From contig CAYMOC010000002.1 in the NCBI GenBank assembly GCA_964391965.1, positions 16,915-80,914 of the forward strand: 64,000 bases of DNA, read 5' to 3'. A program made the translations under genes and the position numbers. The notes under the pieces were generated by a model that worked only from the letters and a program-made list of their open reading frames with translations, was not told the origin of the DNA and did not search any database. This stretch comes from an uncultured Thermoplasmatales archaeon (lineage in GTDB: Archaea > Thermoplasmatota > E2 > DHVEG-1). How positions within the stretch are numbered: position 1 is the first letter of the stretch; each line of letters starts with the position of its first letter. Positions 31,785-50,311 of the stretch are shown here, in pieces.

Positions 31785-31865
31785 GTTTATCTCTCCTTTT
31801 AAAAGCAATAACAAAAATAATTAACATACGTTAACTATATAATATTTTTCCAAAAAAAGAAAAAA

Positions 31866-33198: not shown

Positions 33199-33222
33199 AC
33201 TATTTAAACATTATAGTTATCT

Positions 33223-34008: not shown

Positions 34009-34140
34009 AAATAAAATTCAACAAAAAAATAACAACAGATCTTAAAATAAAAAAATTTGGTAAAAAAAATTGTTTTGTTTGAGATTCAATCGGTTTTGTA
34101 ATGAATTCATTATAAAAAAACAAGTTTTTCAAATAATCTT

Positions 34141-34262
34141 TCAACAAAATTGTGTTTTTGAGTATTAATATCTAGTAACACAAAATTTGTAACTTTTATT
34201 TTTAAACTATCCGACCATTCTCCTTCATTACCATGAACGTCTTTTGCTTTTACACGTAGTTT
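34141..34262 (-). pseudogene. out-of-frame remnant of a PKD/Ig-like domain C-terminus downstream of the subtilase stop
   Basis: The reverse-strand translation LRVKAKDVHGNEGEWSDSL parallels KVKVMDVYGQESEWSQNL in the C1 protease PKD domain. It is preceded by a stop codon in that frame. Confidence 0.2.
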
Positions 34263-34297
34263 ATATTTTAATTGTTATCCAAACCAAATCTTCTTTA

Positions 34298-37200
34298 TTA
34301 TTTTATAAGCTTATTAACTAACATAAATATAAGGGGAAATCTTTGTGTAAACTGATAGAGTTTAAACAAAAACGAATTCACTTCTGAAACATGAACTCCA
34401 TCTATAACTGTTTGAGTGATACTGTTACCATTTAAATCAATTGCATTTGTTCTGAAAGAAAGTTTTGTATCATCTACTACAGAAATTTCTGCAATCCATC
34501 TATTTTCTGAAGTGGGAATTAAAGAAGTATTTTTCCAGGTTTTTCCGTTATCAGCAGAATGCTGCAAATTTAATTTTAACAAAGAACTTTCATCTTGGAC
34601 TTCCATTACCAATTGTATCTTATTATCTTTGGTAATAACTCTATTGTACAAATTATTGTTTAAACATCTAAGATAAACATCCGGAGGATTTGAATCTTTT
34701 GAAAGATTAGCAAAACTTTCAATTTTCGTAATAATTTTTGATGAAATTGAAAGATTTAAGTAACTTTCCGCTATGATTTCAAATTTAGAGGTATCCTTGA
34801 AACTAAAATAATCGTCCAGTTCTTCAGTTATGACATTATCATACAATACATTTCCATCTTGAATAATTGTCCAAATTGTTCTATCAACACCCGAAAAAAC
34901 ATTGTTACCATGTGCATCTTCTAAAATTGTATCAGTTAAAGTAATATAATTATTAGTTTCATTAAGTTTATTTTTGGATATTCTCAGGCCAGATTTAAAA
35001 GGATGTTCTCCAAATACTTTCGTAGGATTGCTATTTTTTCCGTAGCTTTCAATATTAAGCGACATAAAAGAGATACTTTTATTCTCATACATTCCAATTG
35101 CAGCATCGATATATTTAACTGGCTCAGCTTGAAGAAATACATTTATTTTATAAGGTGAAGGCATCGTAATTAATTTTGGTATCAAATCAATTGGATTCAT
35201 AAAATAAAATCCAAAAATATTGGTCAATTCATAGTCTTCTACAAAAGGAAACAGACCCCAATTTACAATACCCTCTTTGATCTGAGGAGTTTTAAGTATT
35301 GTTTCTCTTTTTATGAAGTTATTATAATCCGGTTTAAATGTTGTATCTTCTTTTATCCCTTGTTGGTTAAATCTTACAACATAAAAACTTGGCATTTTTG
35401 TTTCATGACTTAAATACCACATATAATCCTTGAACAATCTTAACTTTGGATGAAATTGGTAATTTAATGTCATGTTAAATTTCTCATTTGGAGAAATCCT
35501 AAAATCACCATCATAAAAAGTACTGCCAAATCCCGCCCTGTCAATACCAATACGATTATAACAAACAATTTGATTGATTCTTCCTGGATTAAAATCTACT
35601 TTTACTGTATTTTCTGAATCCACTATTATTCTACAATCATCGATTATACTGAGATCTTCTTTTAATAAAATATTTGTTTCTACTTTATTAGAAATAAAAT
35701 CATCCAGTTTTTTTGAGAAGGACTCACAAGAGTAGATATGATAAACACCATCTGGTAAATAAAAAACACTATTTAAACTACCTATTTCCGTCTCATTTTT
35801 ACCCATTTTTAAATACGTATAATAAGAGAAACCATACCAGTTATTTTCCTCAGAAAAAATCATTGTATAAGCAGTATAAATTCCAAAAAGTTTTATTTCA
35901 TCTTTATTCTTAAAAGGAGTAGAAATATTAATTTTATTTAAACCACTAATTCCAAACATTACATTATAACTGTCATTTAAATCAGAGGTTATCGATATTC
36001 GTCCATAATAGATTTTTTTAGGTATATTAGTTGTGTTAACTGTTAACTTTATAGATCTCTTGCATCCTGCAGGAATTATTAACTCAGTTTCATTTAATTT
36101 CACAAAATCAAATATGTTACCATGAATATCATATAATGATAATTTTAGACTTACTTCATGATCAACTATTTGGTTAAGATTTTCAATGTAAAATATTTCT
36201 TCTTTTGTAATAAACTCTGTAAACACTCCAAAATTGATAAATGAGTTTGAGATATGTAAATCAGAACTAACCGCCGAAGAAACATTTAATCTTCCAGCAC
36301 CCTCCTGATAAGCATTATAACCCAACGGATTTGCAGTTGAGGTTAACGCATCTTTAACATCAGAAACATTCCAATCTGGATGTGCCTGCATAACTAGACT
36401 AGCAGCACCTGCTACATGTGGACAAGCCATACTAGTACCAGAATAAGTCACATATCCCTCACTAAAAGCATCTGCTGCAGTAATCCTATAACCCGGAGCA
36501 ACAAGATCAGGTTTCATAAGATGATTAAAAGACGGTCCTTTACCGCTAAAATATGCTAACTCATCATTTTTTGTACTTGCACCAACAGATATTACATCAT
36601 TAGTACTAACAATTGGATTCATAGTATAATATCCAGCGCTTCCATCGTTTCCCGAGGCGACTACCACCAAAACATTATTCTCAATTGCATTGTTAATTGC
36701 TTTTTCTAAAGGATTTTCTGTAACACTACTAAATAATGTACTCGGGCCTAGACTCATACTTACAATATCTGCTTCATCTCCAGTATTTGAAATATTATCC
36801 GGCCCATAAGCAGCATATTCAATTCCAGAAATAATCCAAGAAATATAACCTCCGTCTTTACCTAATACTTTAACGTTCCATAGTTTTGCTTTTGGAGCAA
36901 TGCCAGTATAACGATAATCTGAGGCGGCACCAGTTCCTGCTGCTATACTAGCACAATGTGTACCATGACCAACAACATCCTCTTCAGTTTCATTATACTT
37001 GTTTTCCCTGGAGGGTATGCATAACTTATTTTCAACTACCTTTGGGTCATGTGTTAAAGGATTATCGTCTAAATCATCAAGATCAGGATGAGAACTATTT
37101 ATGCCTGTATCCAGAATGGCAATTTCGATATTTTCTCCATCAAATCCATAGTTATGAGCCAAATCCGCCCCTACAATTGGAACGCTTTCATCTAAACAAA

Positions 37201-37864
37201 CATCTACTTTTCTATCTAACCATATTTTATTTATATTATTATCTGAAATTAACGATTCAACTTCAAAATCAGGTTCTTTTATAGAGATTTTTGAGGCGAC
37301 TAAATTTGCAATACTATAATAATTACGAGACATCGTATTTTCTTTTATCAGCCTATCAGTTTTAAGTAAAGAAGTATCATCTAAAAAAGAGGATCTGCAA
37401 ATATTATTTACCTCGCTTCGACTATCTTTCAACTCTATAATAACAGGTATATAATCTAATTTATAATATTCATTTTCAATTAAATAATCAATGTTAAAAA
37501 ATTCAATATCGATTTTTTCCAAATCTATATTCTTTGGAATTAAATAATTATTATTTTTGATTTTTAATTCATGAAAATTATTGAGATCTTCTATTTGATC
37601 TGAGGGAAATATTATTGGTTTTTTATCTACATTTTCAATTTGTTTAACTAAAAAACGATCACCAGATATTAACATTAAATCTTGTGTGTCTCCAGATTTA
37701 TCCGATTGATAGTTATTATCAATCAAATAGTTATTATTATTCATTTTATAATTGGTAAAAATTTTCTTCCCCGATATACTACTAACATTATTTGTCATTA
37801 GAAGATTAAAACCAGCTAAAAATAAGATGCTTACTAATACAATAGATATGAGTTCTTTTTTCAT
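34298..37864 (-). CDS. secreted subtilisin-like (S8) serine protease with very long C-terminal extension
   Basis: The D/H/S triad motifs are AILDTGI, HGTHCAS and GTSMACPHVAG. A signal peptide follows the ATG at 37864. Confidence 0.7.
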   Translation of the reverse strand: MKKELISIVLVSILFLAGFNLLMTNNVSSISGKKIFTNYKMNNNNYLIDNNYQSDKSGDTQDLMLISGDRFLVKQIENVDKKPIIFPSDQIEDLNNFHELKIKNNNYLIPKNIDLEKIDIEFFNIDYLIENEYYKLDYIPVIIELKDSRSEVNNICRSSFLDDTSLLKTDRLIKENTMSRNYYSIANLVASKISIKEPDFEVESLISDNNINKIWLDRKVDVCLDESVPIVGADLAHNYGFDGENIEIAILDTGINSSHPDLDDLDDNPLTHDPKVVENKLCIPSRENKYNETEEDVVGHGTHCASIAAGTGAASDYRYTGIAPKAKLWNVKVLGKDGGYISWIISGIEYAAYGPDNISNTGDEADIVSMSLGPSTLFSSVTENPLEKAINNAIENNVLVVVASGNDGSAGYYTMNPIVSTNDVISVGASTKNDELAYFSGKGPSFNHLMKPDLVAPGYRITAADAFSEGYVTYSGTSMACPHVAGAASLVMQAHPDWNVSDVKDALTSTANPLGYNAYQEGAGRLNVSSAVSSDLHISNSFINFGVFTEFITKEEIFYIENLNQIVDHEVSLKLSLYDIHGNIFDFVKLNETELIIPAGCKRSIKLTVNTTNIPKKIYYGRISITSDLNDSYNVMFGISGLNKINISTPFKNKDEIKLFGIYTAYTMIFSEENNWYGFSYYTYLKMGKNETEIGSLNSVFYLPDGVYHIYSCESFSKKLDDFISNKVETNILLKEDLSIIDDCRIIVDSENTVKVDFNPGRINQIVCYNRIGIDRAGFGSTFYDGDFRISPNEKFNMTLNYQFHPKLRLFKDYMWYLSHETKMPSFYVVRFNQQGIKEDTTFKPDYNNFIKRETILKTPQIKEGIVNWGLFPFVEDYELTNIFGFYFMNPIDLIPKLITMPSPYKINVFLQAEPVKYIDAAIGMYENKSISFMSLNIESYGKNSNPTKVFGEHPFKSGLRISKNKLNETNNYITLTDTILEDAHGNNVFSGVDRTIWTIIQDGNVLYDNVITEELDDYFSFKDTSKFEIIAESYLNLSISSKIITKIESFANLSKDSNPPDVYLRCLNNNLYNRVITKDNKIQLVMEVQDESSLLKLNLQHSADNGKTWKNTSLIPTSENRWIAEISVVDDTKLSFRTNAIDLNGNSITQTVIDGVHVSEVNSFLFKLYQFTQRFPLIFMLVNKLIK

Positions 37865-37937
37865 TTTATCCAAACCAAATTTTTTATTTGTTTGTTTATA
37901 TAAATTTTCATATATAAATTTTTCCTTATATAAAAAA

Positions 37938-38846
37938 TTAATTAATGTTTTCAAAATTTGCACTATAAAATGACAAAAAAACTACAACAAAAAACCCTGC
38001 AATTATTGAAAAAAAGGTAAAAAATACATTCGAAGGATTATCAAGTATAATCTTACCAGGGGAACGAAGAGCACCTACCATCAAACCAATAACAAAACAT
38101 AAAGTAGCTGTATGATACTTTTTAAGAAGAAAAGACAAAACTCGAGAAAAAGAAAGTAAACCAACTGCTCCACCAGCAATATATAATACTGCATAGGGAA
38201 GATCAGTGAAATCTAAAGTCGCGATTTTTTTTAAAACATTTATCATAAAACTATACTGACCAAGAACAAGAAGAATAAAAGCACCAGACACACCTGGCAG
38301 TATCATAGCACAAAAAGAAATGAAACCAGCAAGAAAAATAACTATAAAAGAATGGGTGGTATTTATTTGTTCTAAACCTACAACCAGAAAACCAACTAAA
38401 AACCCAATTAAAACAAAAAAAAGAGACCTAAAAGTAATATTTTTCTTAACCGAATGATAAACAAAAAAAGCAGAAGCAAGAATTAAACCAAGAAAAAAAG
38501 CATAAGTATAATTCTTAAAATTAATTATCAAATAATCCATAAGATGAGCAAGAGATAAAAAAGCAATAAAAATACCAAATGCTAACGGAATTAGTAAAGC
38601 AAAATCTATTTTTAAAAAATTTTCACAAGCTTTTTTAAAATATTTTCGTTTATAGAAACCTTTAAAAAAATAAAAAACAAACTTCAAATCTATAGCTCGG
38701 ATAGCATAAACCAGTCTTTCATAAATACCAGTTATAAGAGCAATTGTTCCACCAGAAACACCAGGGATTATATCAGCACTACCCATGAATAATCCTTTTA
38801 GAAAAATCAGTAATGCCTCAAACTTTGTGTTTTTTGTTTTTTCCAA
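37938..38846 (-). CDS. DUF368-family polytopic membrane protein
   Basis: Two repeats carry a PGVSGxT motif (BacA-like PGxSRSGxT) and there are about 8 TM helices. Confidence 0.45.
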   Translation of the reverse strand: MEKTKNTKFEALLIFLKGLFMGSADIIPGVSGGTIALITGIYERLVYAIRAIDLKFVFYFFKGFYKRKYFKKACENFLKIDFALLIPLAFGIFIAFLSLAHLMDYLIINFKNYTYAFFLGLILASAFFVYHSVKKNITFRSLFFVLIGFLVGFLVVGLEQINTTHSFIVIFLAGFISFCAMILPGVSGAFILLVLGQYSFMINVLKKIATLDFTDLPYAVLYIAGGAVGLLSFSRVLSFLLKKYHTATLCFVIGLMVGALRSPGKIILDNPSNVFFTFFSIIAGFFVVVFLSFYSANFENIN

Positions 38847-38902
38847 GAATCTTATGCCACCTTAAATCTTAAAAGTTGATAGTAGAAAACATAATTAAAT
38901 AA

Positions 38903-40183
38903 TTATACTTTTTTTCCAAAACCTTTGCTTACCATTAATTCTTTACCCTCTATTACTCTTTCACCACGTATAAAAACATCCGAAGGAAAACATGCTCTAA
39001 AACCTTCAAATGGCGTCCAACCACAACGTGAATGAAGCATATCCGAATCAATCTTGGTTTCATCTTTTAAATCAATAACAACTAAATCAGCATCAAAACC
39101 TTTAACGATTTTTCCTTTACGGATATTTAATATTTCTGCAGGTTTTTCACATAATAAAGAAATCAAACGATTCCAAGAAATTTTTTCTTTTTTAGCCAAA
39201 TACAAAAACAAAGGATACATTGTTTCAACACCCGGAACACCAGAGGGTGCTTCGTTAAACTCTTTTTCTTTTTCTTCCAAGCTGTGTGGTGCGTGATCAG
39301 ATTCTAAAACATCAAAACCATGTTTAATTATATTTTCAAATAAAAAATCCCTGATATCTTTTTGTCTAATTGGAGGGTTAACTTTGTAAAAACTCTGAGG
39401 AGAAAGATGTTTATCAACATATAATAGACTATGATGAGGGGTTACACCACAACTAACATTATTTTCATTACAGTCCTTAATTAAATTAAATGCTTCTTTT
39501 GTCGAAATATGACAAAAATGAATTTTAACATCCAAACCTTTCTTAAATTCTAACACTTGTTTAACAGCTAATTGTTCACATACACCTGGACGAGTTTTAA
39601 GGTGATCCGAAATGTTTTCTTCTTTTATTCTATATTTATTTAAACATTTTTCATCCTCAGCATGAAACAAAATAGGAACATCAACTCCATCCAATGTTTC
39701 AAACAAAGATTTAAGATTATCAAAATCAAATAACAATGAATTTGTTGAACTACCAAGATATGCTTTGAAACCATTACCAAAATCTGCTAACTTATAAGCA
39801 TCTGAAAAATTGTTGTTATTTAAACCAGCGTACAATCCAAAATCTACAACAGATTTATTTTCAGCAGTAGAAATCTTATCTTTTAAATCTGAAACAGTAA
39901 CAGTTTGTGGTTTTGTATTCGGCATATCAAAAACACAAGAAATACCTCCAAAAACAGCGGCTTTTGAACCTGTATAAAAATCCTCTTTTTGTGTCATACC
40001 AGGATCCCTGAAATGAACATGGATGTCTACCCCTGCTGGAAGGATAACCTTGTTTTTAAACTTAAAATGTTTATCACCGGTTAGAATCTTTTTAATACTA
40101 ACTATTTTACCTTCATCTATTCCAATACAACAGTTTTGAAAACCGCCATTAATGTAACATTTTCCTTCAACAACTGTTTCCAT
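38903..40183 (-). CDS. pyrC: dihydroorotase
   Basis: DIHVHFRDPG…MPNTKP is a cyclic amidohydrolase signature. The start is at the internal ATG at 40183. Confidence 0.7.
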   Translation of the reverse strand: METVVEGKCYINGGFQNCCIGIDEGKIVSIKKILTGDKHFKFKNKVILPAGVDIHVHFRDPGMTQKEDFYTGSKAAVFGGISCVFDMPNTKPQTVTVSDLKDKISTAENKSVVDFGLYAGLNNNNFSDAYKLADFGNGFKAYLGSSTNSLLFDFDNLKSLFETLDGVDVPILFHAEDEKCLNKYRIKEENISDHLKTRPGVCEQLAVKQVLEFKKGLDVKIHFCHISTKEAFNLIKDCNENNVSCGVTPHHSLLYVDKHLSPQSFYKVNPPIRQKDIRDFLFENIIKHGFDVLESDHAPHSLEEKEKEFNEAPSGVPGVETMYPLFLYLAKKEKISWNRLISLLCEKPAEILNIRKGKIVKGFDADLVVIDLKDETKIDSDMLHSRCGWTPFEGFRACFPSDVFIRGERVIEGKELMVSKGFGKKV

Positions 40184-40778
40184 CAATTTTTTTCTCCAAT
40201 ATTTCTCCATTGGGTTTTGTTTCAGTAAAAATCTGACCAGAGAATTTATAAATTTTTGTATCAGTTTCAAACCAGGAATCAGGAGGAAGTCCTGCTTTCA
40301 TACAAGTGTGATTCAAAAATTCTTCTTTATCCCACTCTTGTTCAACAGGCACCTGTGGAAGAAGTAGTCCTTTAAACATTCCTTTTTCCACGATGAGTCC
40401 ATCTCGTCCGATTTTTATTGTATCAACATACTCTTGTGGTTTATCAACCTTGATTATTTCTGGTTTTGTAAGAATTGTAACCTCAATAATAATTTTATCA
40501 AGCTCATCAACACTTAAAGGAGGAAAACGAGGATCCCGGGTAGCTGAACTAGCTCCTTCTGCTATAGCGTCTTTTAGTTTCATAACAGGCGTGGGAATTC
40601 CTATACATCCACGTAAATCATGATTTGGGTGAGTATGAAGTGTTACAAAAGCTCCTTGTTTTTCATCAAAAAAATCTTCATCAAAACCAGGTATAGTATC
40701 ATTTTTAACTTTATTTTCAACAACGTTTCTAGCATACTTTACTGCTTTTTTTCCTTTATCTAAATCAATCATAATCAA
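40167..40778 (-). CDS. AMMECR1 domain protein
   Basis: It has the LRGCIG signature. Confidence 0.7.
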   Translation of the reverse strand: MIMIDLDKGKKAVKYARNVVENKVKNDTIPGFDEDFFDEKQGAFVTLHTHPNHDLRGCIGIPTPVMKLKDAIAEGASSATRDPRFPPLSVDELDKIIIEVTILTKPEIIKVDKPQEYVDTIKIGRDGLIVEKGMFKGLLLPQVPVEQEWDKEEFLNHTCMKAGLPPDSWFETDTKIYKFSGQIFTETKPNGEILEKKIDGNSC

Positions 40779-40852
40779 AAAAAGAGTAACATATTTGTTA
40801 TTTAAAAGAAATTTGGTAGAAAAAAAATAAAAAAAGAAATTTTTAAAAATAT

Positions 40853-43800
40853 TTAGTCTTCATCTCTTGACATCAATATGTTTTCTGTTTGAGTCATTGG
40901 TTCATTATCTTCAGAAACAACTTCAAGTGTTCCAATATAGGTATAATTAACTGTATCATTTCCAAATTTAACTGTTTGATTTATAGATACATTATATGAA
41001 CCGGGTTTCAACTCTAGATAATACTGACCGTTTTTATCAGAGGTTATTGTTTTTGATGCTGCTGTGTTATTAACAACTGATTCGTTTTTATCAAAATCAA
41101 TCTTTATGTTACCAATGTTTGAACCATTAATTTTGTCCTTTGTTTCACCACTTACATTGACTGTATGTTTTGTAAGAGAGATATCTAAAGAACTTGTAGA
41201 TGCTGTATCTATTTGTCCATCATAGGAATACACCAAAGCTTTACCCTCTTCTGTATAGCTTCGAATGGTTATATTATAAGAAGCATCATTATTTAATTCT
41301 ACAGTGAACTCTCCGTTTTCATCACTAGTTGGATCATCGGGTGATTTAGCAGGGTTATCCTCTGCTGATTTATCTATCGAGAAATCAATTTCTATATCAT
41401 CAACAGGTTGATTGTTAAATTCAACGTTTCCTGTGAAAGTTAAAGATTCTTTGGTTAATGAAATATTTTGACTTGTTCCATCAGAAGCAGAATCTATATC
41501 ACCTGAACCTGTGTAAACAACTACATCACCTTCGGTGTAATTAACAGATATATTGTAGTAACCTTCAGGTGTTAATTCAACCAGATAGTATCCATCTGAA
41601 TCTGTTGTTGGATTAAATGGTTTTAACGCTGAGTTATTTTCAATTGATTCATCGATTTCAAAATCAAGAGCGATACCTGATTTTTCTATAACGTTTGAGC
41701 TTTTATCAACTATATAACCAGTTATTGTAGCGGAATGTTTCTCAGTTAGTTCTATGTCTTTATCATTGATTTCTGTTTCACTTTTATCAATTGTAAAACC
41801 ACTTTCATTATAAGTGTAAACTAAAACATCTCCTTCTTTATGACTTATCGAAATATTATATACTCCAGGTATCAAATCAAACTTTTCATCAGTTTCTCCA
41901 TTTAATTCATTTGTATATTCGCCATTTAAGTTAGTAATAGCAGTTTTTGCAACTGCAGTATTATTAACAGGATCCTCAACAGACAGATCTGGTGAAAACT
42001 CAATCTGTATTTCTTTATCTTCAACATCTTCACCATCGTATTCAACAGAACCACTTACTTCAACAGGTGCAAGACCAACTGAAATATTATAAGTCAAGGT
42101 CTCATTTTCCTGAGGGAAAATGTATTCCTCTGCAGCATATTCAGTAGTCTCAACTTTTAAAGTGTAGTTGTTAAGATTTAAACCATTAATTGAACCAGGT
42201 ATAAGATTTTTAAAAGAAAAATCTCCTTCGGAATCAGTTGTATCATTTTTAATTTCAGAAGCAACAGTGAACATGTCAGTTGTTTTTTTATGAAGTAAAC
42301 GAACAGTCACATCTTTTAGTTCTTCACCAGAATCATATTTTCCATTCTGGTTTTCATCATAAAATAATTTACCTTCAACATTGGCTGGTTTAGCTTTTGA
42401 AATATTAAGTGTTTTAGTACCAGAATGTAAATTCACAAGATTTCCATAAATGTTGAAATCACCTTCTGATGCATATAGTTGATATCTTCCAGGGAATAAA
42501 TCTGAAACACCATAAAAACCTGATTCTGAAGAAGTATTATCGCCTCGATCGCCTCCCGCAGTATCAGGTTGACCATTTTGATCTATTTTAGTTATTTCTA
42601 TAAGATTCACAGATACATTAGAAAGAACTTTATCAGAGGAAGAATCAAAACTACTATTATCATCCTTATTTTCAAAAACATAACCTTCAACACCTGCAGG
42701 TTTAATTGTAATATTTCCAAGATCTATTCTTCCTTTATCATCAGTAAGTCGCATAGCTTCATCCTCTGAAACTTGAACAGTTATATTTTTAAGGATGAAA
42801 CCACCAACATTTTCATTTTCAATGGATGCAGGAATACCAGAACCAATGGTTGGATAAATATTGAATAATTGTGACATATACTCAGGATAACGAATAACAC
42901 TGAGTTTTATTTCCCCGCCACCAGTTAAAGCACTAAAGTTACCATCAGAAATATTAATCTGATCATGTGTTACTGGAATAACAACTTCATCTGTGTAACT
43001 AAGATTTTTCTGAACCAGCATCATCACAGGTTTATTCATATATTCACCTTGATAAACAAGTGAACCGTTGACTGTGGCACCCTCGTAATATTTAGCAATG
43101 ACAACTGGAGCGAAACCTTGATATTTGGAAATATCAGAAACATACTCTGCATAGAAATGCTTCATACCCTGACAAGGGAGTTGAAAATTTGGAAACTGAC
43201 TTTGTTGTTGCCCTTGCATCTGTGACATTTGACTTTGCCTATATCCAAAGAATGTTTTGTAAAACATAGTATTAAAATATGGATCTTGATAATCCTGACT
43301 AGTGTCAGTAACTTGATAATATTGCCTTTCATTTTCAGGTAATTCTAGAATTTCTTTGGCATACTGATCGAACCTACGTTCAGGTTCTCCTTGTGGATTC
43401 AAAACTTCTCCTTTGTAATTGATTTTAACAAATTCATCACTTGGTACTTGTTGAGTCATAATAAGACTTTTATCAGCAAGAAATGCAAATATACTAAAAA
43501 TTTGTCTATCATAGATTTCTGTAGCATAATAACGAATACTTAACCCCGTAGTTTCCTGAATATCATGATAGAACCACACGGTTTCATCCAGAGATAGACC
43601 AGTTGTGTTATTATTTACCAAATCAACAATATCATGATAATAAGCATTTTCAGGCCATTGAGCACCTACTTTTAGAAATCTTTCATCAATATTTTGAATA
43701 TACTGATGATACTCAGGATAAATGTCTTCACCGTATGATGGAGACTCAGTAGGCTGTTCTAACCAAGAAGAGATCTTTTCTGCATTATCCGGGAAATATT

Positions 43801-45790
43801 TATTTAAAACATCATACACATCATCAGAAACTTTGTTTTTGTTTTTTGAAACATCGCCTTCCATCAAACGTATCGCTAAAACAGCTATAGCTTCTTTTTC
43901 ACTAGTAGCAGTATGAAAATTACTGGCAGGAGGAATACCATCCTGGAAATTGTCAGCAACAGTAGGATGTTCACCAATTGCAACCTCATAGAAACCATAA
44001 TCCCACCAGGATATAACAGCAGGACGATCTACTGGATCTGAAATATCTGTATCTTGTTGTTTCAACCATTGAAAAGCTTCAGTCCAATATCTTTCTTTTC
44101 CAACACCTAAACCAAATGGATGAGAAACTTCTTCACCCCAAAACATTTCCTTCCATGTGCCATCTCCATCTTCAGTTTCAGCATTAGGAATAGCAGCAGT
44201 AAAAACAGGTATAATATTAAAAATCAAAGACATAGAAACAAAAAGGATTCCCACTACATGTAAAACTTTTACACCACGTCGTATCCCATGCAAACCTCCT
44301 CCAGCATTTTTAATATCCCTAACCATACCTGGATAGTCAATTTTATCAATAATTAACCAAGTTAGAAAACCAGCAAAAATAGCTATCACCGGCGCCATAT
44401 CTGTAAGAAAACGACCAGCAATACCAGTCAACCAAACATTTACCATAAACAAGATAACCAAAAATAATAAATCATTTCTCTCATGATTTTTATAAAATTT
44501 ATAGATTACAAAAATAAAACCAGCCCAACCAAGCCAATACAAAACAGCACCGAAATTCATAACAGTATTACTAATCGGAAAAGTATTAGCCTCAGCAATA
44601 GTCAAAGAAACTTTATTAGAATAAATCCCGCCAGTACCACGAATGATTTCACTAAACTTTGAAAGCTGACCTATATATGGGACAACAGAACTAAGCTCTG
44701 GAATAAACCATAAAAAGGAAAAACCAGCACCACCTAAAATTAATATAACAGGCAATGAAAGAGTCCAAGGGATTTTTCTTCTACCCAACACATAATAGAT
44801 TAATCCAAAAATCAAGACTCCTAATATCATATAAAATGGGATTGTTGCTCTGAAACCACTCGCCCATTTTGATGCGATCACAGGCAACGAAACCATATAA
44901 CCTGTAAAAAGTATAACCAAAGGAGGCATAAACGTTTTAATATCATCTTTTCCTTTTAAAAGATCGATAAAAATTTGAACAAATGCATACAACGCAATAA
45001 CAGTATACAAGTATTCATGTTCAACCCAAACCATACTTAAACCAGCAAGAGATATTCCTCCAAGAAGAGCATAAAAAAATGATTTTGCTCTATCTTTTTC
45101 TTTAATGCTTTTTATAAGAAAAGCAAACGTTATGAAAAACAAAAGTAAGTTAAATGAATCATGATCAAAAAGAGAATAAGCTGAACCATGACCTGTACCA
45201 ACAATTGCAACAGTTAACGAAAGCCATAAAGCAGAGATTAATCCAACTTTTTTATTAAATACATCTTTTCCTATAGAATAAACTGGGAAAACAAGTAACG
45301 CTCCAAATAAAGCAGGTATAAACTGCATCGCATATCCAATTGCATCAATTTCATCCATAAACGGAGTTAACACTCTACTGAAACCAAGAGCCATCATGTT
45401 AAATAATGGAGCACGACCACCAGATCGGCCAATAGGATAATCTAGTAAGGGATCATTCTCTGAGTAAAACTGGTACGTCCCCTCATTATATGTTTCTTCA
45501 ACGATTCTCATATTATAGTAAGGGTCCGGGCCTGAAAGATAATATTTTTCTAAGCCATCTCCATCAGGATTATATGCTACACCACTTATAATGTTGAAAT
45601 AGGAATTAAAGAGTAATACTAATAAAAAGATTCCAATTAAAGCAACTCCTATCCACCAGTTTTTTTTCAGTTTAGGGATTGTGCTTTTTGGTTTTTCAAT
45701 CACTGTTTTTCTGGTGGATACATGTTTTGGTTCTTCTGAATAGGTTTTACTTTTTCTTTGTGCTCGTTTTCGCATTTTAACTTTCACCAT
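40853..45790 (-). CDS. aglB: oligosaccharyltransferase AglB/STT3 with ~700-aa C-terminal repeat extension
   Basis: It has a polytopic N-terminal domain, the WWDYG motif (ISWWDYGFYE) and an N-terminal DPYY/SGGRAPL region. C-terminal repeated beta-domains contain YNISVNYTEGDVVVYTG-like units. Confidence 0.8.
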   Translation of the reverse strand: MVKVKMRKRAQRKSKTYSEEPKHVSTRKTVIEKPKSTIPKLKKNWWIGVALIGIFLLVLLFNSYFNIISGVAYNPDGDGLEKYYLSGPDPYYNMRIVEETYNEGTYQFYSENDPLLDYPIGRSGGRAPLFNMMALGFSRVLTPFMDEIDAIGYAMQFIPALFGALLVFPVYSIGKDVFNKKVGLISALWLSLTVAIVGTGHGSAYSLFDHDSFNLLLFFITFAFLIKSIKEKDRAKSFFYALLGGISLAGLSMVWVEHEYLYTVIALYAFVQIFIDLLKGKDDIKTFMPPLVILFTGYMVSLPVIASKWASGFRATIPFYMILGVLIFGLIYYVLGRRKIPWTLSLPVILILGGAGFSFLWFIPELSSVVPYIGQLSKFSEIIRGTGGIYSNKVSLTIAEANTFPISNTVMNFGAVLYWLGWAGFIFVIYKFYKNHERNDLLFLVILFMVNVWLTGIAGRFLTDMAPVIAIFAGFLTWLIIDKIDYPGMVRDIKNAGGGLHGIRRGVKVLHVVGILFVSMSLIFNIIPVFTAAIPNAETEDGDGTWKEMFWGEEVSHPFGLGVGKERYWTEAFQWLKQQDTDISDPVDRPAVISWWDYGFYEVAIGEHPTVADNFQDGIPPASNFHTATSEKEAIAVLAIRLMEGDVSKNKNKVSDDVYDVLNKYFPDNAEKISSWLEQPTESPSYGEDIYPEYHQYIQNIDERFLKVGAQWPENAYYHDIVDLVNNNTTGLSLDETVWFYHDIQETTGLSIRYYATEIYDRQIFSIFAFLADKSLIMTQQVPSDEFVKINYKGEVLNPQGEPERRFDQYAKEILELPENERQYYQVTDTSQDYQDPYFNTMFYKTFFGYRQSQMSQMQGQQQSQFPNFQLPCQGMKHFYAEYVSDISKYQGFAPVVIAKYYEGATVNGSLVYQGEYMNKPVMMLVQKNLSYTDEVVIPVTHDQINISDGNFSALTGGGEIKLSVIRYPEYMSQLFNIYPTIGSGIPASIENENVGGFILKNITVQVSEDEAMRLTDDKGRIDLGNITIKPAGVEGYVFENKDDNSSFDSSSDKVLSNVSVNLIEITKIDQNGQPDTAGGDRGDNTSSESGFYGVSDLFPGRYQLYASEGDFNIYGNLVNLHSGTKTLNISKAKPANVEGKLFYDENQNGKYDSGEELKDVTVRLLHKKTTDMFTVASEIKNDTTDSEGDFSFKNLIPGSINGLNLNNYTLKVETTEYAAEEYIFPQENETLTYNISVGLAPVEVSGSVEYDGEDVEDKEIQIEFSPDLSVEDPVNNTAVAKTAITNLNGEYTNELNGETDEKFDLIPGVYNISISHKEGDVLVYTYNESGFTIDKSETEINDKDIELTEKHSATITGYIVDKSSNVIEKSGIALDFEIDESIENNSALKPFNPTTDSDGYYLVELTPEGYYNISVNYTEGDVVVYTGSGDIDSASDGTSQNISLTKESLTFTGNVEFNNQPVDDIEIDFSIDKSAEDNPAKSPDDPTSDENGEFTVELNNDASYNITIRSYTEEGKALVYSYDGQIDTASTSSLDISLTKHTVNVSGETKDKINGSNIGNIKIDFDKNESVVNNTAASKTITSDKNGQYYLELKPGSYNVSINQTVKFGNDTVNYTYIGTLEVVSEDNEPMTQTENILMSRDED

Positions 45791-45870
45791 TTTTTAAATA
45801 ATTCTAAAATTGGGTTTTAATAGTCAGAACCCGTAAAAAGTCTAGCATTATATATAAGTTATCTAAATAA

Positions 45871-46743
45871 TTATAATGATTGATTTGAAAGAATCTTTTT
45901 CATAACAGTTGCAGTTTTTACTATACTAAAATCATTTTCGATAGTATCAGTTGATATGATTTCATCACATCCATTAGATTTTAGTTTTTCAACAGCATTT
46001 TTTGCAAACAAACCATGAGTGCAAGCTGCAAAAACTTTGTTTGCACCATTTTTTTTAAGCTGCTGAATTGATTTAGCCATGGTGCCACCAGTTGAGATTA
46101 TATCATCAACTATTGCTACATTTTTGTTTTTTGCATCAAGATTTTTTGGTTTAATTTCAACTGTCTCTCCATCGATGCGTGTTTTTTCCATATAATCAAA
46201 ATCACAACCAATGATCGATGCTGCTTTTTTAGCTCTATTAAGTGCTCCTTTGTCAGGAGCAAGAATCATATCAACATCTTTTGTTTTTAGATGTTCTGCA
46301 ATAGCAGAAACAGCTGAACAACTTTTAGCTTCACAATCAAAAAAATCAAGAATGTATTCTTTATGAGGATCCACTGTTACAAAAAAATCTGTATTCAAAC
46401 TAATAAGTTTAGCAATAGCACGAGCACTAATTGGTTCCCCATCTTTAAATTTTTGATCCTGACGAGCATAACCAAAATAAGGAGCAACAACTGTGATACT
46501 ATTTGCTTTTGCTTCTTTTACTGCATCCATAAGTAAAAAAAGCTCAATTATTTTTTCATCAGGAAAAGTAGTTTGAACAATTATAACATCTTCATCAGAT
46601 ACATCATCCATGAGTCTAACATACAATTCTCCATCAGGAAAACGTTTTCTCTCAAGTTTAACCACTGATACATTCAAAACTTTAGATAAGTCATTAGATA
46701 TTTTCTTTGATGCTGAACCTTCAATAATCTTCATAACAATCAA
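45871..46743 (-). CDS. prs: ribose-phosphate pyrophosphokinase
   Basis: It has the PRPP-binding motif VDDIISTGGT. Confidence 0.8.
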   Translation of the reverse strand: MIVMKIIEGSASKKISNDLSKVLNVSVVKLERKRFPDGELYVRLMDDVSDEDVIIVQTTFPDEKIIELFLLMDAVKEAKANSITVVAPYFGYARQDQKFKDGEPISARAIAKLISLNTDFFVTVDPHKEYILDFFDCEAKSCSAVSAIAEHLKTKDVDMILAPDKGALNRAKKAASIIGCDFDYMEKTRIDGETVEIKPKNLDAKNKNVAIVDDIISTGGTMAKSIQQLKKNGANKVFAACTHGLFAKNAVEKLKSNGCDEIISTDTIENDFSIVKTATVMKKILSNQSL

Positions 46744-46839
46744 AAAATCGAAACTGCAATTAGATTAAAAAGTTTTTTTGGTAAGAAAGTTTTTATAACA
46801 ATCAAATATTATTCTATTTAAAGAAGGTGGGATGTAATA

Positions 46840-49029
46840 ATGAAATACAATCGTACTATTATTTTTATATTAATAATCGGATTAATTTTTTCTTCTGTAG
46901 CTGTTAATATTGACACGATAAATGCAGATGATGAAAATGCACAAGACAATGTGGATACTGAATTCAGAATTACAATAAATTCTCCCACTTATTTTTTGAT
47001 TAATGCAACAACGATTGTTGAACATATAACCCTACCAGGCAGCGGTAAAACATATAACACCTCTCAGATTGAATCAGGGAGTGCACCTCTCGAGGCTATT
47101 AAAGGACGCATCCATGAAGTTATAAATGAAACAATAAGAAATACATTCCCAGGATGTAAAATAAATCCGAATCAGGATTTACCAGCATATACTAATGGTT
47201 CTTTTAACTCCGATTTTTTTATAACTGTAACAACAGAGTTTTTTTCAATGAACGAAAAAGCAGATTTAGCTAAAATGCTAAAAGGAATGCTAAATATGGG
47301 TGCAGATATAGTATACGATTTTAATCTATACGCAACAAACGGATGGCAGAACACTTTTGAATTTTTTTCTGAATCAGAATACACAATCATCAGCTCCAGC
47401 AGAAAAAAAACTGTTGATGGAAATATACAAAACGAAAATAACAAAAAAATTAAGATTACAAACATGTCAAAATCATCAAGTCTAGAAGAAAAAATCACAT
47501 TTGATTTTAAGATTGATTCAACACAAAATAAAAGAAATTCTCTAGAGATTACAATGACAATAAAATCAATCGCAATATCTATTTATAACCTTCCTGATTA
47601 TGTCGACAAATTGAGTTTTATAACTGCTGATGGAATAAGACTTTTTATAGAAAACAAATTTAACAATTTCACATGGAGCAATATAAAAACCACTACAATC
47701 AATCCTCTAATAAAAGACACGTCATCAATAATTGAAAATTCATCTCTAAATCAAACACTGAACCTCGAATTTGAATGGGATACAAACTCTACAGAAGTTT
47801 CACCGGGCTATGATTTAAATAATATGGATAGTCAACCACCTATAAAAACAACATTTATAGACGACTATGTTAACTTAAGCATATGTAATATCTCTGATAA
47901 AGCATTTTATGGCATAATAAATTCAGGAGGCAAAGTAAATCTTAATTCCGAGGATATCAATTTTGGTGATGGTTTAAACAAATTATCATATGAATATGAG
48001 AATTCAATATTATTCCCAAAAAATATGACATTAAGTAATCAAAATCCATTTACATGGAAACAATCAGAGGATTTTAACGGAAACTTTGAATCGAAAGATG
48101 CAAAGGATTACAATAAAGAAAATAAAGAAACAGTTATTGAAATTGACCTTCAAAATCCTCGGTTAAATGTTTTGAGTTTTATAACAGGTAATACCGAGCT
48201 TGAATTTGATGCAATAGTTACAGAGAGTAGAAAATATTATGTTTCAAATATATCAAATGAATCAGAATATTTCCCAATTCCAGAAAAAATTTCTCTGGAT
48301 TATCTTTGCGCTGATGCCTTTAGATTATGTGTAAATGAAAATGTTTTCAGTGATGAAAACATGACTAGTTTTTTACAGAATGAAAAAAATATTTTCAAAC
48401 AAAGAACAAATGATTTATGGCCGGGTTTAAAAATCGGTAAACAAGCAAAAATAGATAAAACAACGTTTGAAAAATCCTTAAATTCCGAAGAAGTAAATAT
48501 TTTTGATATGGACGAATATCCTGCTATAAATGTTGACAGTAACGCTAAAATAGTTAAGCCTATCAATTTTGATTTAGGTCTTCTACCGCCGTCTTTTAAA
48601 ATAGAAAAACAAACATTTAAAATAGAAAGTTTAGAGGATCAAAATATAACGTATAGGATTATATTCCCAGATGGCATAAATGTAAAGGTTAGAAATAGTT
48701 TAATTAAAGATGCGGATATACAAAAAACAAAAGATGGAAGAACAATAATTGAATTTAGTTTCAATAGTTCAGAAGGAGGTTTGCCTGCTAATCTCATAGA
48801 TTGCGAACTTGAGACGTCCGGTGTTTTTATCCTTGGCATGTTTCTACCATGTATACTCACATTTATTGTGGCAATTATTCTTGTATTAGTAATTATTTTT
48901 GTTAAAAGAAAAAAAGGTGGAAGATTCAGAGATTTAATACCACGTAGATCTAAAAAAGAAAAATTTGAAGAAGACAGTTACGAAGATGAAGAATTCTATG
49001 TTCCGCCACCACCGGAAGGAAAAAAATAG
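46840..49029 (+). CDS. type-I membrane surface protein, hypothetical
   Basis: It has a signal peptide, a large Asn/Ser-rich ectodomain, a C-terminal TM helix and a basic tail with PPPP. Confidence 0.45.
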   Translation: MKYNRTIIFILIIGLIFSSVAVNIDTINADDENAQDNVDTEFRITINSPTYFLINATTIVEHITLPGSGKTYNTSQIESGSAPLEAIKGRIHEVINETIRNTFPGCKINPNQDLPAYTNGSFNSDFFITVTTEFFSMNEKADLAKMLKGMLNMGADIVYDFNLYATNGWQNTFEFFSESEYTIISSSRKKTVDGNIQNENNKKIKITNMSKSSSLEEKITFDFKIDSTQNKRNSLEITMTIKSIAISIYNLPDYVDKLSFITADGIRLFIENKFNNFTWSNIKTTTINPLIKDTSSIIENSSLNQTLNLEFEWDTNSTEVSPGYDLNNMDSQPPIKTTFIDDYVNLSICNISDKAFYGIINSGGKVNLNSEDINFGDGLNKLSYEYENSILFPKNMTLSNQNPFTWKQSEDFNGNFESKDAKDYNKENKETVIEIDLQNPRLNVLSFITGNTELEFDAIVTESRKYYVSNISNESEYFPIPEKISLDYLCADAFRLCVNENVFSDENMTSFLQNEKNIFKQRTNDLWPGLKIGKQAKIDKTTFEKSLNSEEVNIFDMDEYPAINVDSNAKIVKPINFDLGLLPPSFKIEKQTFKIESLEDQNITYRIIFPDGINVKVRNSLIKDADIQKTKDGRTIIEFSFNSSEGGLPANLIDCELETSGVFILGMFLPCILTFIVAIILVLVIIFVKRKKGGRFRDLIPRRSKKEKFEEDSYEDEEFYVPPPPEGKK

Positions 49030-49038
49030 TTGATAAGT

Positions 49039-50223
49039 TTATTTTAAAAGTTTAGGTAAAAATCTTACCAACGAAGGTGATTTCTTAATCAAAGGTTTAA
49101 CTAGTTTAGAAGGAAAATCTATATCCCCATGTTCATTTATCGTGTTAATTATTTTTTCATTTTCAAACTTTTTAATATAGAAATCTAATTCTTCATCAGC
49201 TAAGTTTTTGAATATTTTTCTAAATCTCATACCTATTTTGATTTCTTTACCAAGCATGTTTGTCCATTTTTTTTGATAAATACTAAGGTTTTTTGCTGTA
49301 AAATCATTATTTCCAAGAGAATTTAGTGCTGTTTCGGCACAAAAATCTGCTGAAACTAAACCAGGGTATAAACCACCACCGGATGTGGGTTTTACCTGAG
49401 ACGCTGCATCTCCAACGATCATAAGATTGTCATCAAAAGTTTTTTTTAGAAACCCAACAGGTATTATTCCACCGATATTTTTTGTAATTTTAATATTTTT
49501 AAAAATTTTTTTTGTGTGTTTATGTTTTAAAAAACGGTTGAAATAATATTTTGATGAATGTTTACAGTTCTGTTGTATACATAAACCTATTCTTGCCTTG
49601 GTTCCCTCATCGTTTAAAGGGATGATCCATGCAAAAAAACCTGGAGATATTTTGTTTCCAACAAATATTTCGACAAAATCAGGATCAAGTTTTGTGTTTA
49701 TAATTTCTGCTCCGATACCGATTAGTTTTTCTTCAGGTTCAGGTAGTTTGAATTGTTTTCTAACCCTGGATAATGCTCCATCTGCACCTATTAATAATTT
49801 AGTATTGTAAACGTTTTCTTTATTTGTTTTGATTTTTATTTGATTGTGTTTTTTAACGGTTTCAATAAATTTTTCATTTCTATAAATCTGTGTGTTGCTA
49901 TCAACTGAGTTTTCTATTAGTTTTTTATCAAAAAGCTGTCGGTCTATAACCAACGCATGTGTTTTATTTCCACCAAGTGTTAATATATGATTTGATGGAG
50001 AATGAACGTGAGCTCCTTTTATCTTATTTTGGAGTGATTCATTTTTATTTATATCAATAAGTTTAAAGATTCTTGATGTGACTAAACCTGCGCATTGAAT
50101 ATGTTGTCCTATTTCTTTGTTTTTCTCTATAATTACTACTTTGTAACCTTTTTTTGAGATTTTCTGAGCAACTGATGCGCCTATTGGCCCTCCGCCGATA
50201 ATTGTAACATCTGTTTCCATCAT
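49039..50223 (-). CDS. geranylgeranyl reductase family FAD-dependent oxidoreductase
   Basis: It has the motifs VTIIGGGPIGASVA and VGDAASQVKPTSGGGL. Confidence 0.6.
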   Translation of the reverse strand: MMETDVTIIGGGPIGASVAQKISKKGYKVVIIEKNKEIGQHIQCAGLVTSRIFKLIDINKNESLQNKIKGAHVHSPSNHILTLGGNKTHALVIDRQLFDKKLIENSVDSNTQIYRNEKFIETVKKHNQIKIKTNKENVYNTKLLIGADGALSRVRKQFKLPEPEEKLIGIGAEIINTKLDPDFVEIFVGNKISPGFFAWIIPLNDEGTKARIGLCIQQNCKHSSKYYFNRFLKHKHTKKIFKNIKITKNIGGIIPVGFLKKTFDDNLMIVGDAASQVKPTSGGGLYPGLVSADFCAETALNSLGNNDFTAKNLSIYQKKWTNMLGKEIKIGMRFRKIFKNLADEELDFYIKKFENEKIINTINEHGDIDFPSKLVKPLIKKSPSLVRFLPKLLK

Positions 50224-50311
50224 TTTTATACAAGAGATTGTGTAATGTGCCAAAGATTTATAATGGAATCGTTGATTCACTGGCTTTAACAAAAAATACA
50301 AGAGTTTTTTA

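Follow-up and report, generated by a model that had tools for sequence, protein, structure and literature searches.

A candidate glycosylated stalk: the tail of six beta-sandwich domains on AglB from an uncultured Thermoplasmatota archaeon

AglB is the enzyme that defines archaeal N-glycosylation and, to our knowledge, all that is known of its structure and biochemistry comes from proteins of approximately 600–1050 aa. A 64,000-nucleotide stretch of DNA from an uncultured Thermoplasmatales archaeon (hereafter the window) contains an uninterrupted aglB gene of 1645 codons plus a stop (positions 40853–45790 of the minus strand, on which all parts of the gene described below also lie). This locus raises the question of whether so long a protein is genuine and, if it is, what its additional C-terminal part consists of and what it may do for the enzyme or the cell.

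One explanation to be considered is an artefact, i.e. a fusion of aglB with the gene of a surface protein through a sequencing, assembly or annotation error. Over its 4938 nt the gene can be read into 1645 aa without a change of frame, and the only stop codon is the one at its end. Moreover, the tailed architecture within a single ORF is shared by independent assemblies, as it was found in all 120 homologues listed, as well as in the complete ORFs (where the contig was complete) among 80 species-level loci of Thermoplasmatota metagenome-assembled genomes (MAGs). In the nearest genome, a MAG of an uncultured Thermoplasmatales archaeon, AglB (86% identity) bears the same six tail domains, and the junction itself is conserved, with invariant and near-invariant residues over positions 1000–1040. 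The preliminary description of this DNA, which saw neither an overlooked stop nor a frameshift in the fusion, is thus borne out, and the artefact is effectively refuted already. The true start of the gene is probably Met6 (45775), since the homologues begin with MRKRAQRK, corresponding to the window protein from Met6 onward; the sequence GGTGA is located 8 nt upstream of this ATG.

The initial proposal that the gene product is an oligosaccharyltransferase of the AglB type was supported. The protein was recognized by the Pfam families STT3 (PF02516; 62.9 bits against a cut-off of 24.5, residues 84–477) and AglB_core-like (27.4 bits against a cut-off of 27, residues 585–638), and its best sequence match in the PDB was Archaeoglobus fulgidus AglB-L (E 1e-15). 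The AlphaFold2 (AF2) model of residues 1–1200 (pLDDT 79) had AfAglB-L (7e9s/5gmy/3wak) as the top fold match (E 1e-21, TM 0.65 on target), followed by STT3 and PglB. The model TIGR04154 (archaeo_STT3, archaeosortase A system-associated) was rejected, as the score fell well short of its cut-off (198 of the required 450 bits) and only model positions 28–581 of 831 were covered.

The enzyme begins with a basic cytoplasmic N-terminus and an approximately 13-helix transmembrane GT-C domain (residues 1–540; 44171–45790), assigned from the STT3 match, the alignment with AfAglB-L, the invariant residues and hydropathy; about 13 hydrophobic segments were found before residue 540 and none after it, and the AF2 helices agree on this number. 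This domain contains the motifs GPDPYY (87–92), FDHD (208–211), TIAE (397–400) and AGRF (458–461), of which the first aligns with GNDPWY of AfAglB, the first DxD-type acidic motif in EL1. The set of acidic, metal- and acceptor-binding motifs of the transmembrane domain (the EL1 DxD-type motif, D-x-D/H and the EL5 TIXE/SVSE motif) is therefore present, and residues D89, D209, H210, D211 and E400 are invariant among 67 sequences. The extracellular catalytic globular domain follows (residues 541–874; 43169–44170), identified by the AglB_core-like match and by matches to the C-terminal domains 3vgp and 3vu0 in the PDB. It carries the WWDYG motif (residues 595–599; 43994–44008), invariant across the family, and, according to the AF2 secondary structure, a helical insert at approximately 650–750. 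The next unit, D0 (residues 875–1027; 42710–43168), is a beta-rich peripheral unit of the globular domain, with AF2 strands at 879–1007, for which no family was found by Pfam. It probably corresponds to P1/P2 in the CC/IS/P1/P2 scheme drawn up for the solved AglBs (PMC3703281).

The GT-C transmembrane domain and the WWDYG globular domain are thus common to the window protein and to the AglB-L enzymes of A. fulgidus (PDB 3WAJ, 3WAK, 5GMY, 7E9S) and Pyrococcus, and with AfAglB-L the acidic EL1 motif, the D-x-H/D motif, TIAE and a conserved Arg are also shared, although the sequence identity is only about 14%. The solved AglB-Ls, too, bear non-catalytic beta-rich peripheral units, P1 and P2, of unknown role (PMC3703281). 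A canonical DxxKxxx(M/I) motif, of the DK or MI type that forms the Ser/Thr pocket, could not be recognised in the window AglB: the pattern is absent from residues 1–700, and WWDYG is followed by a conserved helix with ...TATSEKEA..., in which E631 is invariant. In the A. fulgidus AglBs, too, the DK/MI motif is a variant one, for which sequence gives no alignment (PMC3703281). Residues 1 to about 1027 constitute a complete and apparently active AglB, in which the metal- and substrate-binding motifs of the transmembrane domain are intact. What sets the window protein apart is what follows, as AfAglB-L (868–875 aa) has approximately 325 residues past WWDYG and the window AglB has 1050, and none of the solved AglBs has a counterpart of residues 1028–1645.

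This tail of approximately 618 aa, lying beyond the canonical AglB fold, is composed of six prealbumin/transthyretin-like beta-sandwiches, two SdrD-B-like domains followed by four CarboxypepD_reg-like repeats of 95–107 aa. An extension had been correctly reported before; its length of about 700 aa was an overestimate, as the stretch then noted (40853–43000, residues 931–1645) takes in not only the six tail domains, of which four form a clear repeat, but also a portion of a seventh beta unit, one that the globular domain of AglB includes. The first SdrD-B-like domain, D1 (1028–1135; 42386–42709), was assigned by its similarity to D2, weak SdrD_B and CarboxypepD_reg matches and an all-beta AF2 structure, and has an acidic D/N-rich loop, while D2 (1136–1240; 42071–42385) was assigned by its SdrD_B match and has the loop FYDENQNGKYDSGEE. 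These loops may resemble the calcium-binding loops of the SdrD B domains. SdrD_B (PF17210) was matched by the whole protein with 35.9 bits (cut-off 29.7), by D2 alone with 31.5 and by D1 alone with 16.4.

The remaining four units are D3 (1241–1347; 41750–42070), which is nearest to the first unit of the orthologues with two copies, D4 (1348–1446; 41453–41749; CarboxypepD_reg 22.5 bits) and D5 (1447–1541; 41168–41452), both of which are extra in comparison with the modal architecture, and the terminal D6 (1542–1645; 40856–41167; CarboxypepD_reg 25.3 bits), which is nearest to the sole unit of the one-copy proteins (48% identity) and has a hydrophilic, acidic C-terminus without an anchor. CarboxypepD_reg (PF13620) was matched above its cut-off of 32.3 bits by the whole protein (62 bits), whereas each single tail domain remained below it (15–28 bits); the 7-strand transthyretin-like sandwich of this family is likewise recognized in the tail. 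Compared with the transthyretin-like regulatory domain of carboxypeptidase D (PF13620; PDB 5AQ0, 1QMU), the units of the window protein thus form a subfamily of their own. Together with the all-beta AF2 model of residues 1020–1645 (pLDDT 91.9), the whole-protein score upholds the original assignment to carboxypeptidase-regulatory-like or Ig-like beta domains, and the pTM of 0.70 suggests a defined inter-domain geometry in the modelled tail.

As BLASTP of the whole C-terminus against itself gave the identity match alone, fragments were compared with the whole. This revealed internal repeats at approximately 1240–1645 (E down to 2e-17, 35–43% identity) and a weaker pair, 1030–1101 against 1134–1199 (D1/D2, E 1e-5). 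A MAFFT alignment of units 1240–1347, 1348–1446, 1447–1541 and 1542–1645 showed pairwise identities of 27–43%, which agrees with the at least four repeats of about 90–110 aa claimed earlier. The four recurring strings pointed out at that time all lie at an equivalent position of the unit (YN[IV][ST] at residues 1311, 1412, 1505 and 1599). The consensus of the D3–D6-type unit is F..PD.S..NNTA...SDE.G.Y..L.PG.YN. At the DNA level, no tandem repeat of a relevant period was found in 40800–43100, and the repetition is visible in the protein only; recent duplication or slippage is therefore ruled out as its origin, and the repeats are old.

The comparison with other genomes revealed that a tailed AglB is the norm in this uncultured Thermoplasmatota clade. 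The 120 homologues listed are 1273–1645 aa long and share a core Pfam set, with STT3 and CarboxypepD_reg in every protein and SdrD_B in all but one, so that the length of 1645 aa, flagged at the outset as unusual, is so in comparison with the characterised AglBs but not within its own clade, in which proteins of about 1400 aa are usual. Between one and four terminal units are present, with a mode of two: the 121 proteins analysed comprise 15 with one unit, 94 with two, 5 with three and 7 with four, the window AglB being at the maximum, and the 80 species-level loci fall into matching copy-number classes. In the four-copy proteins the units show position-specific orthology (53–63%). The tail matched 294 of 1.84 billion representatives. 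Each protein inspected among the strong D3–D6 matches was an AglB or a fragment of one, while the bacterial SdrD_B-type repeat proteins matched the D1/D2 region only; as judged from these searches, the D3–D6 unit type is essentially confined to AglBs of this kind. No description of a tailed AglB was found in the open-access literature, the absence there being no proof of novelty.

The gene lies in a conserved neighbourhood of housekeeping character, and a surface protein encoded nearby (46840–49029) is conserved as well. Searches with repeat HMMs found the D3–D6 unit in no other ORF of the window, and a surface module common to neighbouring genes is thus ruled out. Elsewhere in the window lie genes for large peptidases from families of secreted enzymes, namely an S8 subtilase (34298–37963) and a papain-like C1 peptidase (30219–31814).

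In a Foldseek search, the tail matched pilin and TIE/SdrD stalk arrays, the best matches being a TIE protein, SpaC, RrgA, SdrD and UafA. Tandem prealbumin-like stalk arrays are indeed what the tail has in common with the Gram-positive shaft and B-repeat domains (SdrD B; the CnaB-type SpaA, BcpA and GBS52; TIE). Since these best matches are stalks of adhesins and pilins, the tail might be considered an adhesin-like appendage to particles (e.g. detrital protein) or to other cells, with AglB serving merely as its membrane anchor, and the two peptidases of the window would be compatible with a particle-associated, proteolytic lifestyle. We regard this as highly improbable, because the chain closes with an ordinary repeat unit and not with a distal head or ligand-binding domain, a thioester or isopeptide signature is absent, and there is no evident reason for an essential enzyme in a conserved housekeeping neighbourhood to anchor an adhesin. 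Across 246 aligned units, no column contained a Lys conserved in at least 60%. This result, along with the lack of an LPXTG sorting signal and the hydrophilic, acidic C-terminus, also rules out an isopeptide pilin of the CnaB type, with which the fold alone is shared; without a distal head domain and a conserved isopeptide triad, the tail is not a pilin. The array of the window protein differs from the Gram-positive shafts and B-repeats in having no sortase signal, no head domain and no conserved isopeptide Lys; moreover, it extends a polytopic membrane enzyme at its C-terminal end and is not attached to the cell wall, and it is rich in sequons and hence probably glycosylated.

In the solved AglBs, all of the sequence past the last transmembrane helix is extracellular. 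Given this topology, and as no hydrophobic segment occurs past residue 540, we infer that the tail is extracellular too. The distribution of N-X-S/T sequons was examined along the protein. None is present in residues 1–480, while the tail (1028–1645) contains 24 against an expected 10.8±2.8, a number reached in 0 of 2000 shuffles. Family-wide, the ratio of observed to expected sequons is 2.3, with z>2 in 92% of the 121 proteins, which are related and hence not independent. N-x-S/T occurred 1639 times, against 905 occurrences of the reversed S/T-x-N and 414 of N-x-x-S/T; the beta-strand i/i+2 periodicity inflates N-x-S/T-like patterns, and the reversed motif is accordingly frequent as well. Some sequon columns recur inside the unit consensus, and at N1026, N1129, N1229, N1235, N1312 and N1385 a sequon is present in 64–95% of 66 orthologues. 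Sequon enrichment is not equivalent to occupancy, but the approximately twofold excess together with the several conserved positions makes heavy N-glycosylation of the tail most likely; the modifying enzyme would presumably be AglB itself, working either in cis or on adjacent molecules.

On these grounds we propose, giving it about an even chance, that the tail forms a stalk outside the cell that has no catalytic function, is heavily N-glycosylated and extends into the envelope. Coated with glycans, this rod-like structure would stretch from AglB into the envelope or glycocalyx. There it could be a spacer or a contact to an outer layer of the envelope, as well as a shield that resists proteases, and its length could be tuned through the gain or loss of units. 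The stalk or spacer role is based on fold analogy and on the variation in copy number. In Sulfolobus, the S-layer is anchored to the membrane by SlaB, a glycosylated beta-sandwich stalk (PMC10903991), and the proposed stalk would resemble the beta-sandwich part of SlaB or the shaft domains of Gram-positive pilins and adhesins. SlaB, however, has a purely structural role, contains a coiled coil and one transmembrane helix, and forms trimers, whereas the beta-sandwiches of the window protein are fused to an enzyme and have no known partner lattice. As many Thermoplasmatales are devoid of an S-layer (PMC5155288), there may be no outer layer for such a stalk to reach.

Two other roles of the tail can be considered. 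It could consist of binding modules that aid catalysis, either lectin- or CBM-like ones recognising the lipid-linked glycan or the glycosylated products, or chaperone-like ones holding unfolded acceptors emerging from Sec, i.e. a fused analogue of the luminal beta-sandwiches of the eukaryotic oligosaccharyltransferase (OST) accessory subunits. The confinement of the unit type to AglBs suggests a function linked to the enzyme; weak Pfam similarity to the beta-sandwich domains of NOMO was also noted, and the strongly conserved N-T-A motif (N 91%, T 78% and A 92% in the 246 units) exceeds the requirements of a sequon, so that a conserved binding or structural site might lie there. Nevertheless, we find binding modules doubtful: no above-threshold sequence match to any defined carbohydrate-binding family was obtained, the units next to the catalytic domain are SdrD-B-like, which are typical stalk modules, and the variation from one to four copies among orthologues that retain the enzyme fits an element of length or valency better than a specific site.

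The second role, which we consider improbable, is that of a built-in, self-glycosylated substrate and scaffold, with AglB decorating its own appendage. The resulting glycan-coated rod might contribute to the glycocalyx or envelope that protects the cells of this lineage, which possibly have no conventional S-layer, or it might capture acceptor chains or glycans, as the separate beta-sandwich accessory subunits of the eukaryotic OST do. Either option would go with a unit type specific to AglB and with a copy number that sets the reach.

If the tail is merely a decorative stalk, its discovery amounts to a tidy note on domain architecture. In any case, a widespread sediment lineage of Thermoplasmatota is now seen to possess AglBs of 1270–1645 aa with a modular, sequon-dense and AglB-specific beta-sandwich tail. 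Should this tail prove to be either a stalk of the envelope that carries glycans or an accessory module fused to the enzyme, there would be a handle on the cell envelope of abundant uncultured archaea, as well as a natural experiment for gauging the contribution of non-catalytic domains to a single-subunit oligosaccharyltransferase.

In the AT-rich window (~30% GC), the AglB oligosaccharyltransferase is encoded at 40853..45790 (-) by one ORF of 1645 codons, whose translation contains a sole, terminal stop. The preliminary description had likewise read this region as a single ORF and, as there is no internal stop in 40853..45790 (-), the opposite reading, an artefact, was rejected. The true aglB start is probably Met6: MRKRAQRK, the N-terminus of homologues, corresponds to Met6 of this protein in the family alignment, and a Shine-Dalgarno-like GGTGA is located 8 nt 5' of its ATG. 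The annotated start (45775-45790 (-)) probably lies five codons too far upstream.

The enzyme part (residues 1 to ~1027) matched Pfam STT3 (62.9 bits versus a cut-off of 24.5, residues 84-477) and gave an AglB_core-like Pfam match (residues 585-638), while the top PDB sequence match (E 1e-15, query 84-634) was AglB-L of Archaeoglobus fulgidus (AfAglB-L), a structurally characterised oligosaccharyltransferase. Pattern searches located GPDPYY (residues 87-92), FDHD (208-211), TIAE (397-400), AGRF (458-461) and WWDYG (595-599), i.e. the motif set expected of an active oligosaccharyltransferase, with key residues invariant in a 67-sequence family alignment. The canonical DK/MI motif was not recognisable in the protein by pattern search; its recognition in the A. 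fulgidus enzymes is likewise a known difficulty (PMC3703281). The AlphaFold model of residues 1-1200 (pLDDT 79.4, pTM 0.73) found AfAglB-L as its best PDB fold match (E 1e-21, TM 0.65 normalised on target), followed by eukaryotic STT3s and PglB. These matches show a real AglB, whose motifs make it look catalytically intact. The NCBIfam archaeosortase-associated STT3 model gave a partial match only, far under its cut-off.

In the hydropathy profile, all of the ~13 hydrophobic segments lie ahead of residue 540. Together with homology with solved AglBs, this places residues ~540-1645 outside the cell, and the C-terminal tail (residues 1028-1645) is, by this homology, extracellular. Within the external globular domain there is a mostly helical stretch of ~100 residues (43500-43840 (-), residues ~650-750; AF2 helices at 656-748), which separates the WWDYG core from the beta units, and the PDB sequence matches end ahead of it, at ~residue 640. 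Just ahead of the tail is a seventh beta-rich unit (~875-1027), which had no Pfam match and is the probable counterpart of the peripheral P1/P2 units in solved AglBs.

The tail is shown to be modular and typical of its clade, and is composed of six prealbumin-like domains (D1-D6). Its AlphaFold model (residues 1020-1645, input of 67 sequences) is confident and wholly beta (pLDDT 91.9, pTM 0.70), in agreement with the beta-domains proposed in the preliminary description. The carboxypeptidase-regulatory-like resemblance suggested there also held, since the whole protein scored over the cut-off for Pfam CarboxypepD_reg (62 bits versus 32.3) as well as for SdrD_B (35.9 versus 29.7). Domain by domain, D2 alone cleared SdrD_B, and single repeat units reached 15-28 bits for CarboxypepD_reg, below the 32.3 cut-off, which makes them divergent members of the prealbumin-like clan. 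Comparison of 110-aa fragments of the C-terminal half with the whole protein (BLASTP) revealed significant internal similarity from residue ~1240 to the end (E down to 2e-17, identity 35-43%) and a second, weaker pair (1030-1101 versus 1134-1199, E 1e-5). Four units, D3-D6 (1240-1347, 1348-1446, 1447-1541 and 1542-1645), align full length with 27-43% identity, and the four recurring strings quoted earlier all fall within one column block of this alignment. The repeats of the supposed ~700-aa extension were thus recovered, although the region beyond canonical AglB is shorter (~618 aa, 1028-1645), and its "at least four" units are four obvious repeats in a tail of six domains. No tandem repeat was found at the DNA level in the aglB 3' region, and the duplications are therefore old.

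A search of 5.8 billion proteins yielded 497 matches; among the matches listed, all 120 (of 497) were 1273-1645 aa long, and STT3, CarboxypepD_reg and SdrD_B (the last with one exception) formed their shared Pfam core. A species-level scan (one genome per species) gave 80 loci, nearly all from Thermoplasmatota/Thermoplasmatales MAGs (e.g. SG8-52, SM1-50, UBA33 and Guaymas bins), the closest sharing 86% identity. An HMM built from the four units and applied to 121 proteins detected one terminal unit in 15 (median length ~1285 aa), two in 94 (~1410 aa), three in 5 (~1536 aa) and four in 7 (~1628 aa). In the 80 loci, residues after WWDYG fall into classes of ~600, 705, 800, 944 and 1040, and the window protein has 1050, at the upper end. 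At the unit level, shorter orthologues have their first unit matched by D3 and their last by D6 (which shares 48% identity with the single unit present in 1-copy proteins), and D4 and D5 are extra units; among 4-copy proteins, each unit position has its own orthologue (53-63% identity). Homologues sharing the single-ORF architecture, the unit classes and this position-specific orthology exclude an artefactual fusion as the origin of the long protein. By the standards of its own lineage, this AglB is ordinary and among the longest.

With the tail (1028-1645) as query, a full HMMER search through 1.84 billion cluster representatives returned only 294 proteins at E<=1e-3 and 106 at E<=1e-10. Among the proteins inspected, strong D3-D6 matches were AglBs or C-terminal AglB fragments; two large non-AglB matches were bacterial SdrD_B-type repeat proteins matching D1/D2 only, and one generic CarboxypepD_reg repeat protein matched D4/D5 weakly (25% identity). 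Repeat HMMs found the unit in no other ORF of the 64-kb window. At the HMMER sensitivity used, the D3-D6 unit appears to be a module specific to AglBs.

The recurring YN[IV][ST] strings are N-glycosylation sequons (N-X-S/T). Compared with composition-preserving shuffles of the protein, residues 1-480 contain 0 sequons (expectation 1.9), residues 481-1027 contain 7 (3.0) and the tail 24 (10.8±2.8; 0/2000 shuffles reach 24). Sequons at N1026, N1129, N1229, N1235, N1312 and N1385 occur in 64-95% of 66 orthologues, with identity in this region of only ~35-50%. In the tails of 121 homologues, the median sequon density is 3.5 per 100 aa (observed/expected 2.3, z>2 in 92%; the proteins are related, so these statistics are not independent). 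In the same related proteins, N-x-S/T occurs 1639 times versus 905 for reversed S/T-x-N and 414 for off-register N-x-x-S/T, and exceeds the reversed motif in 116/121. In 246 aligned units, sequons occupy three recurrent columns (in 46%, 61% and 71% of the units). The absence of any conserved Lys counts against pilin-type isopeptide bonds. An N-T-A motif of D3-D6 (40856-42070 (-); N 91%, T 78%, A 92% of the 246 units from 121 proteins) is conserved beyond the sequon requirement, and beyond the preceding Asn completing the sequon, which points to a possible role in structure or ligand binding.

The gene order GGR, orf729, PRPP synthetase, aglB, AMMECR1, amidohydrolase, IMPase and GGGP synthase (PcrB) (window 32437-50301) recurs in 50-63 of the 80 Thermoplasmatota loci compared, which places aglB among housekeeping and archaeal-lipid genes and not in a glycosylation (agl) island. 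The 729-aa orf729 (46840-49029 (+)), without a Pfam match, is divergently oriented, adjoins the PRPP synthetase/aglB pair and is conserved in 52/80 related loci. Its N-terminus has a hydrophobic, signal-like segment, its C-terminus a TM helix and then a charged tail, and it contains 18 sequons; as a candidate surface glycoprotein anchored in the membrane, it is a possible AglB substrate or envelope component. Some sequon enrichment was seen in orf729, and none in the neighbouring S8 subtilase (34298-37963 (-), 1221 aa). The latter has no counterpart in the 80 related loci and therefore appears to be an insertion particular to this lineage, in a gene order that is otherwise conserved; a papain-family C1 peptidase (531 aa) is encoded at 30219-31814 (-). 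Three genes downstream of aglB, and at that position in only 13/80 related loci, lies a DUF368/VCA0040-like gene (37938-38846 (-); Pfam 'undecaprenyl phosphate translocase-like', E 2e-66), and a putative polyprenyl-phosphate recycling flippase near an oligosaccharyltransferase is a thematic link. The mechanically called AMMECR1 (40167-40778) and amidohydrolase (38903-40270, TTG start) ORFs overlap by ~100 nt (40167-40270), and the TTG start is probably too far upstream.

The tail would be heavily N-glycosylated, as its sequons suggest, most simply by AglB itself, and is probably a non-catalytic stalk or spacer extending into the envelope or glycocalyx. In a Foldseek search of the PDB, the tail model matched stalk arrays from surface proteins of Gram-positive bacteria (B. 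anthracis TIE protein, streptococcal and lactobacillar pilins, GBS52 and SdrD). Adhesins of such bacteria have shaft domains that are analogues of the tail; an adhesin role for the tail itself is less likely. In Sulfolobus, SlaB connects the membrane to the S-layer, and its glycosylated beta-sandwich part is another analogue (PMC10903991); S-layers are missing in many Thermoplasmatales (PMC5155288), which weakens any claim of S-layer contact. In the main rival explanation, catalysis is assisted by the units, which would bind glycans or acceptor chains; the variation from one to four units and the lack of a head domain and of an anchor fit a length or coating element better than a specific catalytic accessory.

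Searches of the open-access full-text literature turned up no account of AglBs bearing tails of this kind, and database labels of the homologues are merely STT3 domain proteins or glycosyltransferases. Relative to characterised AglBs, which have CC, IS, P1 and P2 units, the window AglB is a variant with an added tail; it is a novel form of a known enzyme and not a new system.
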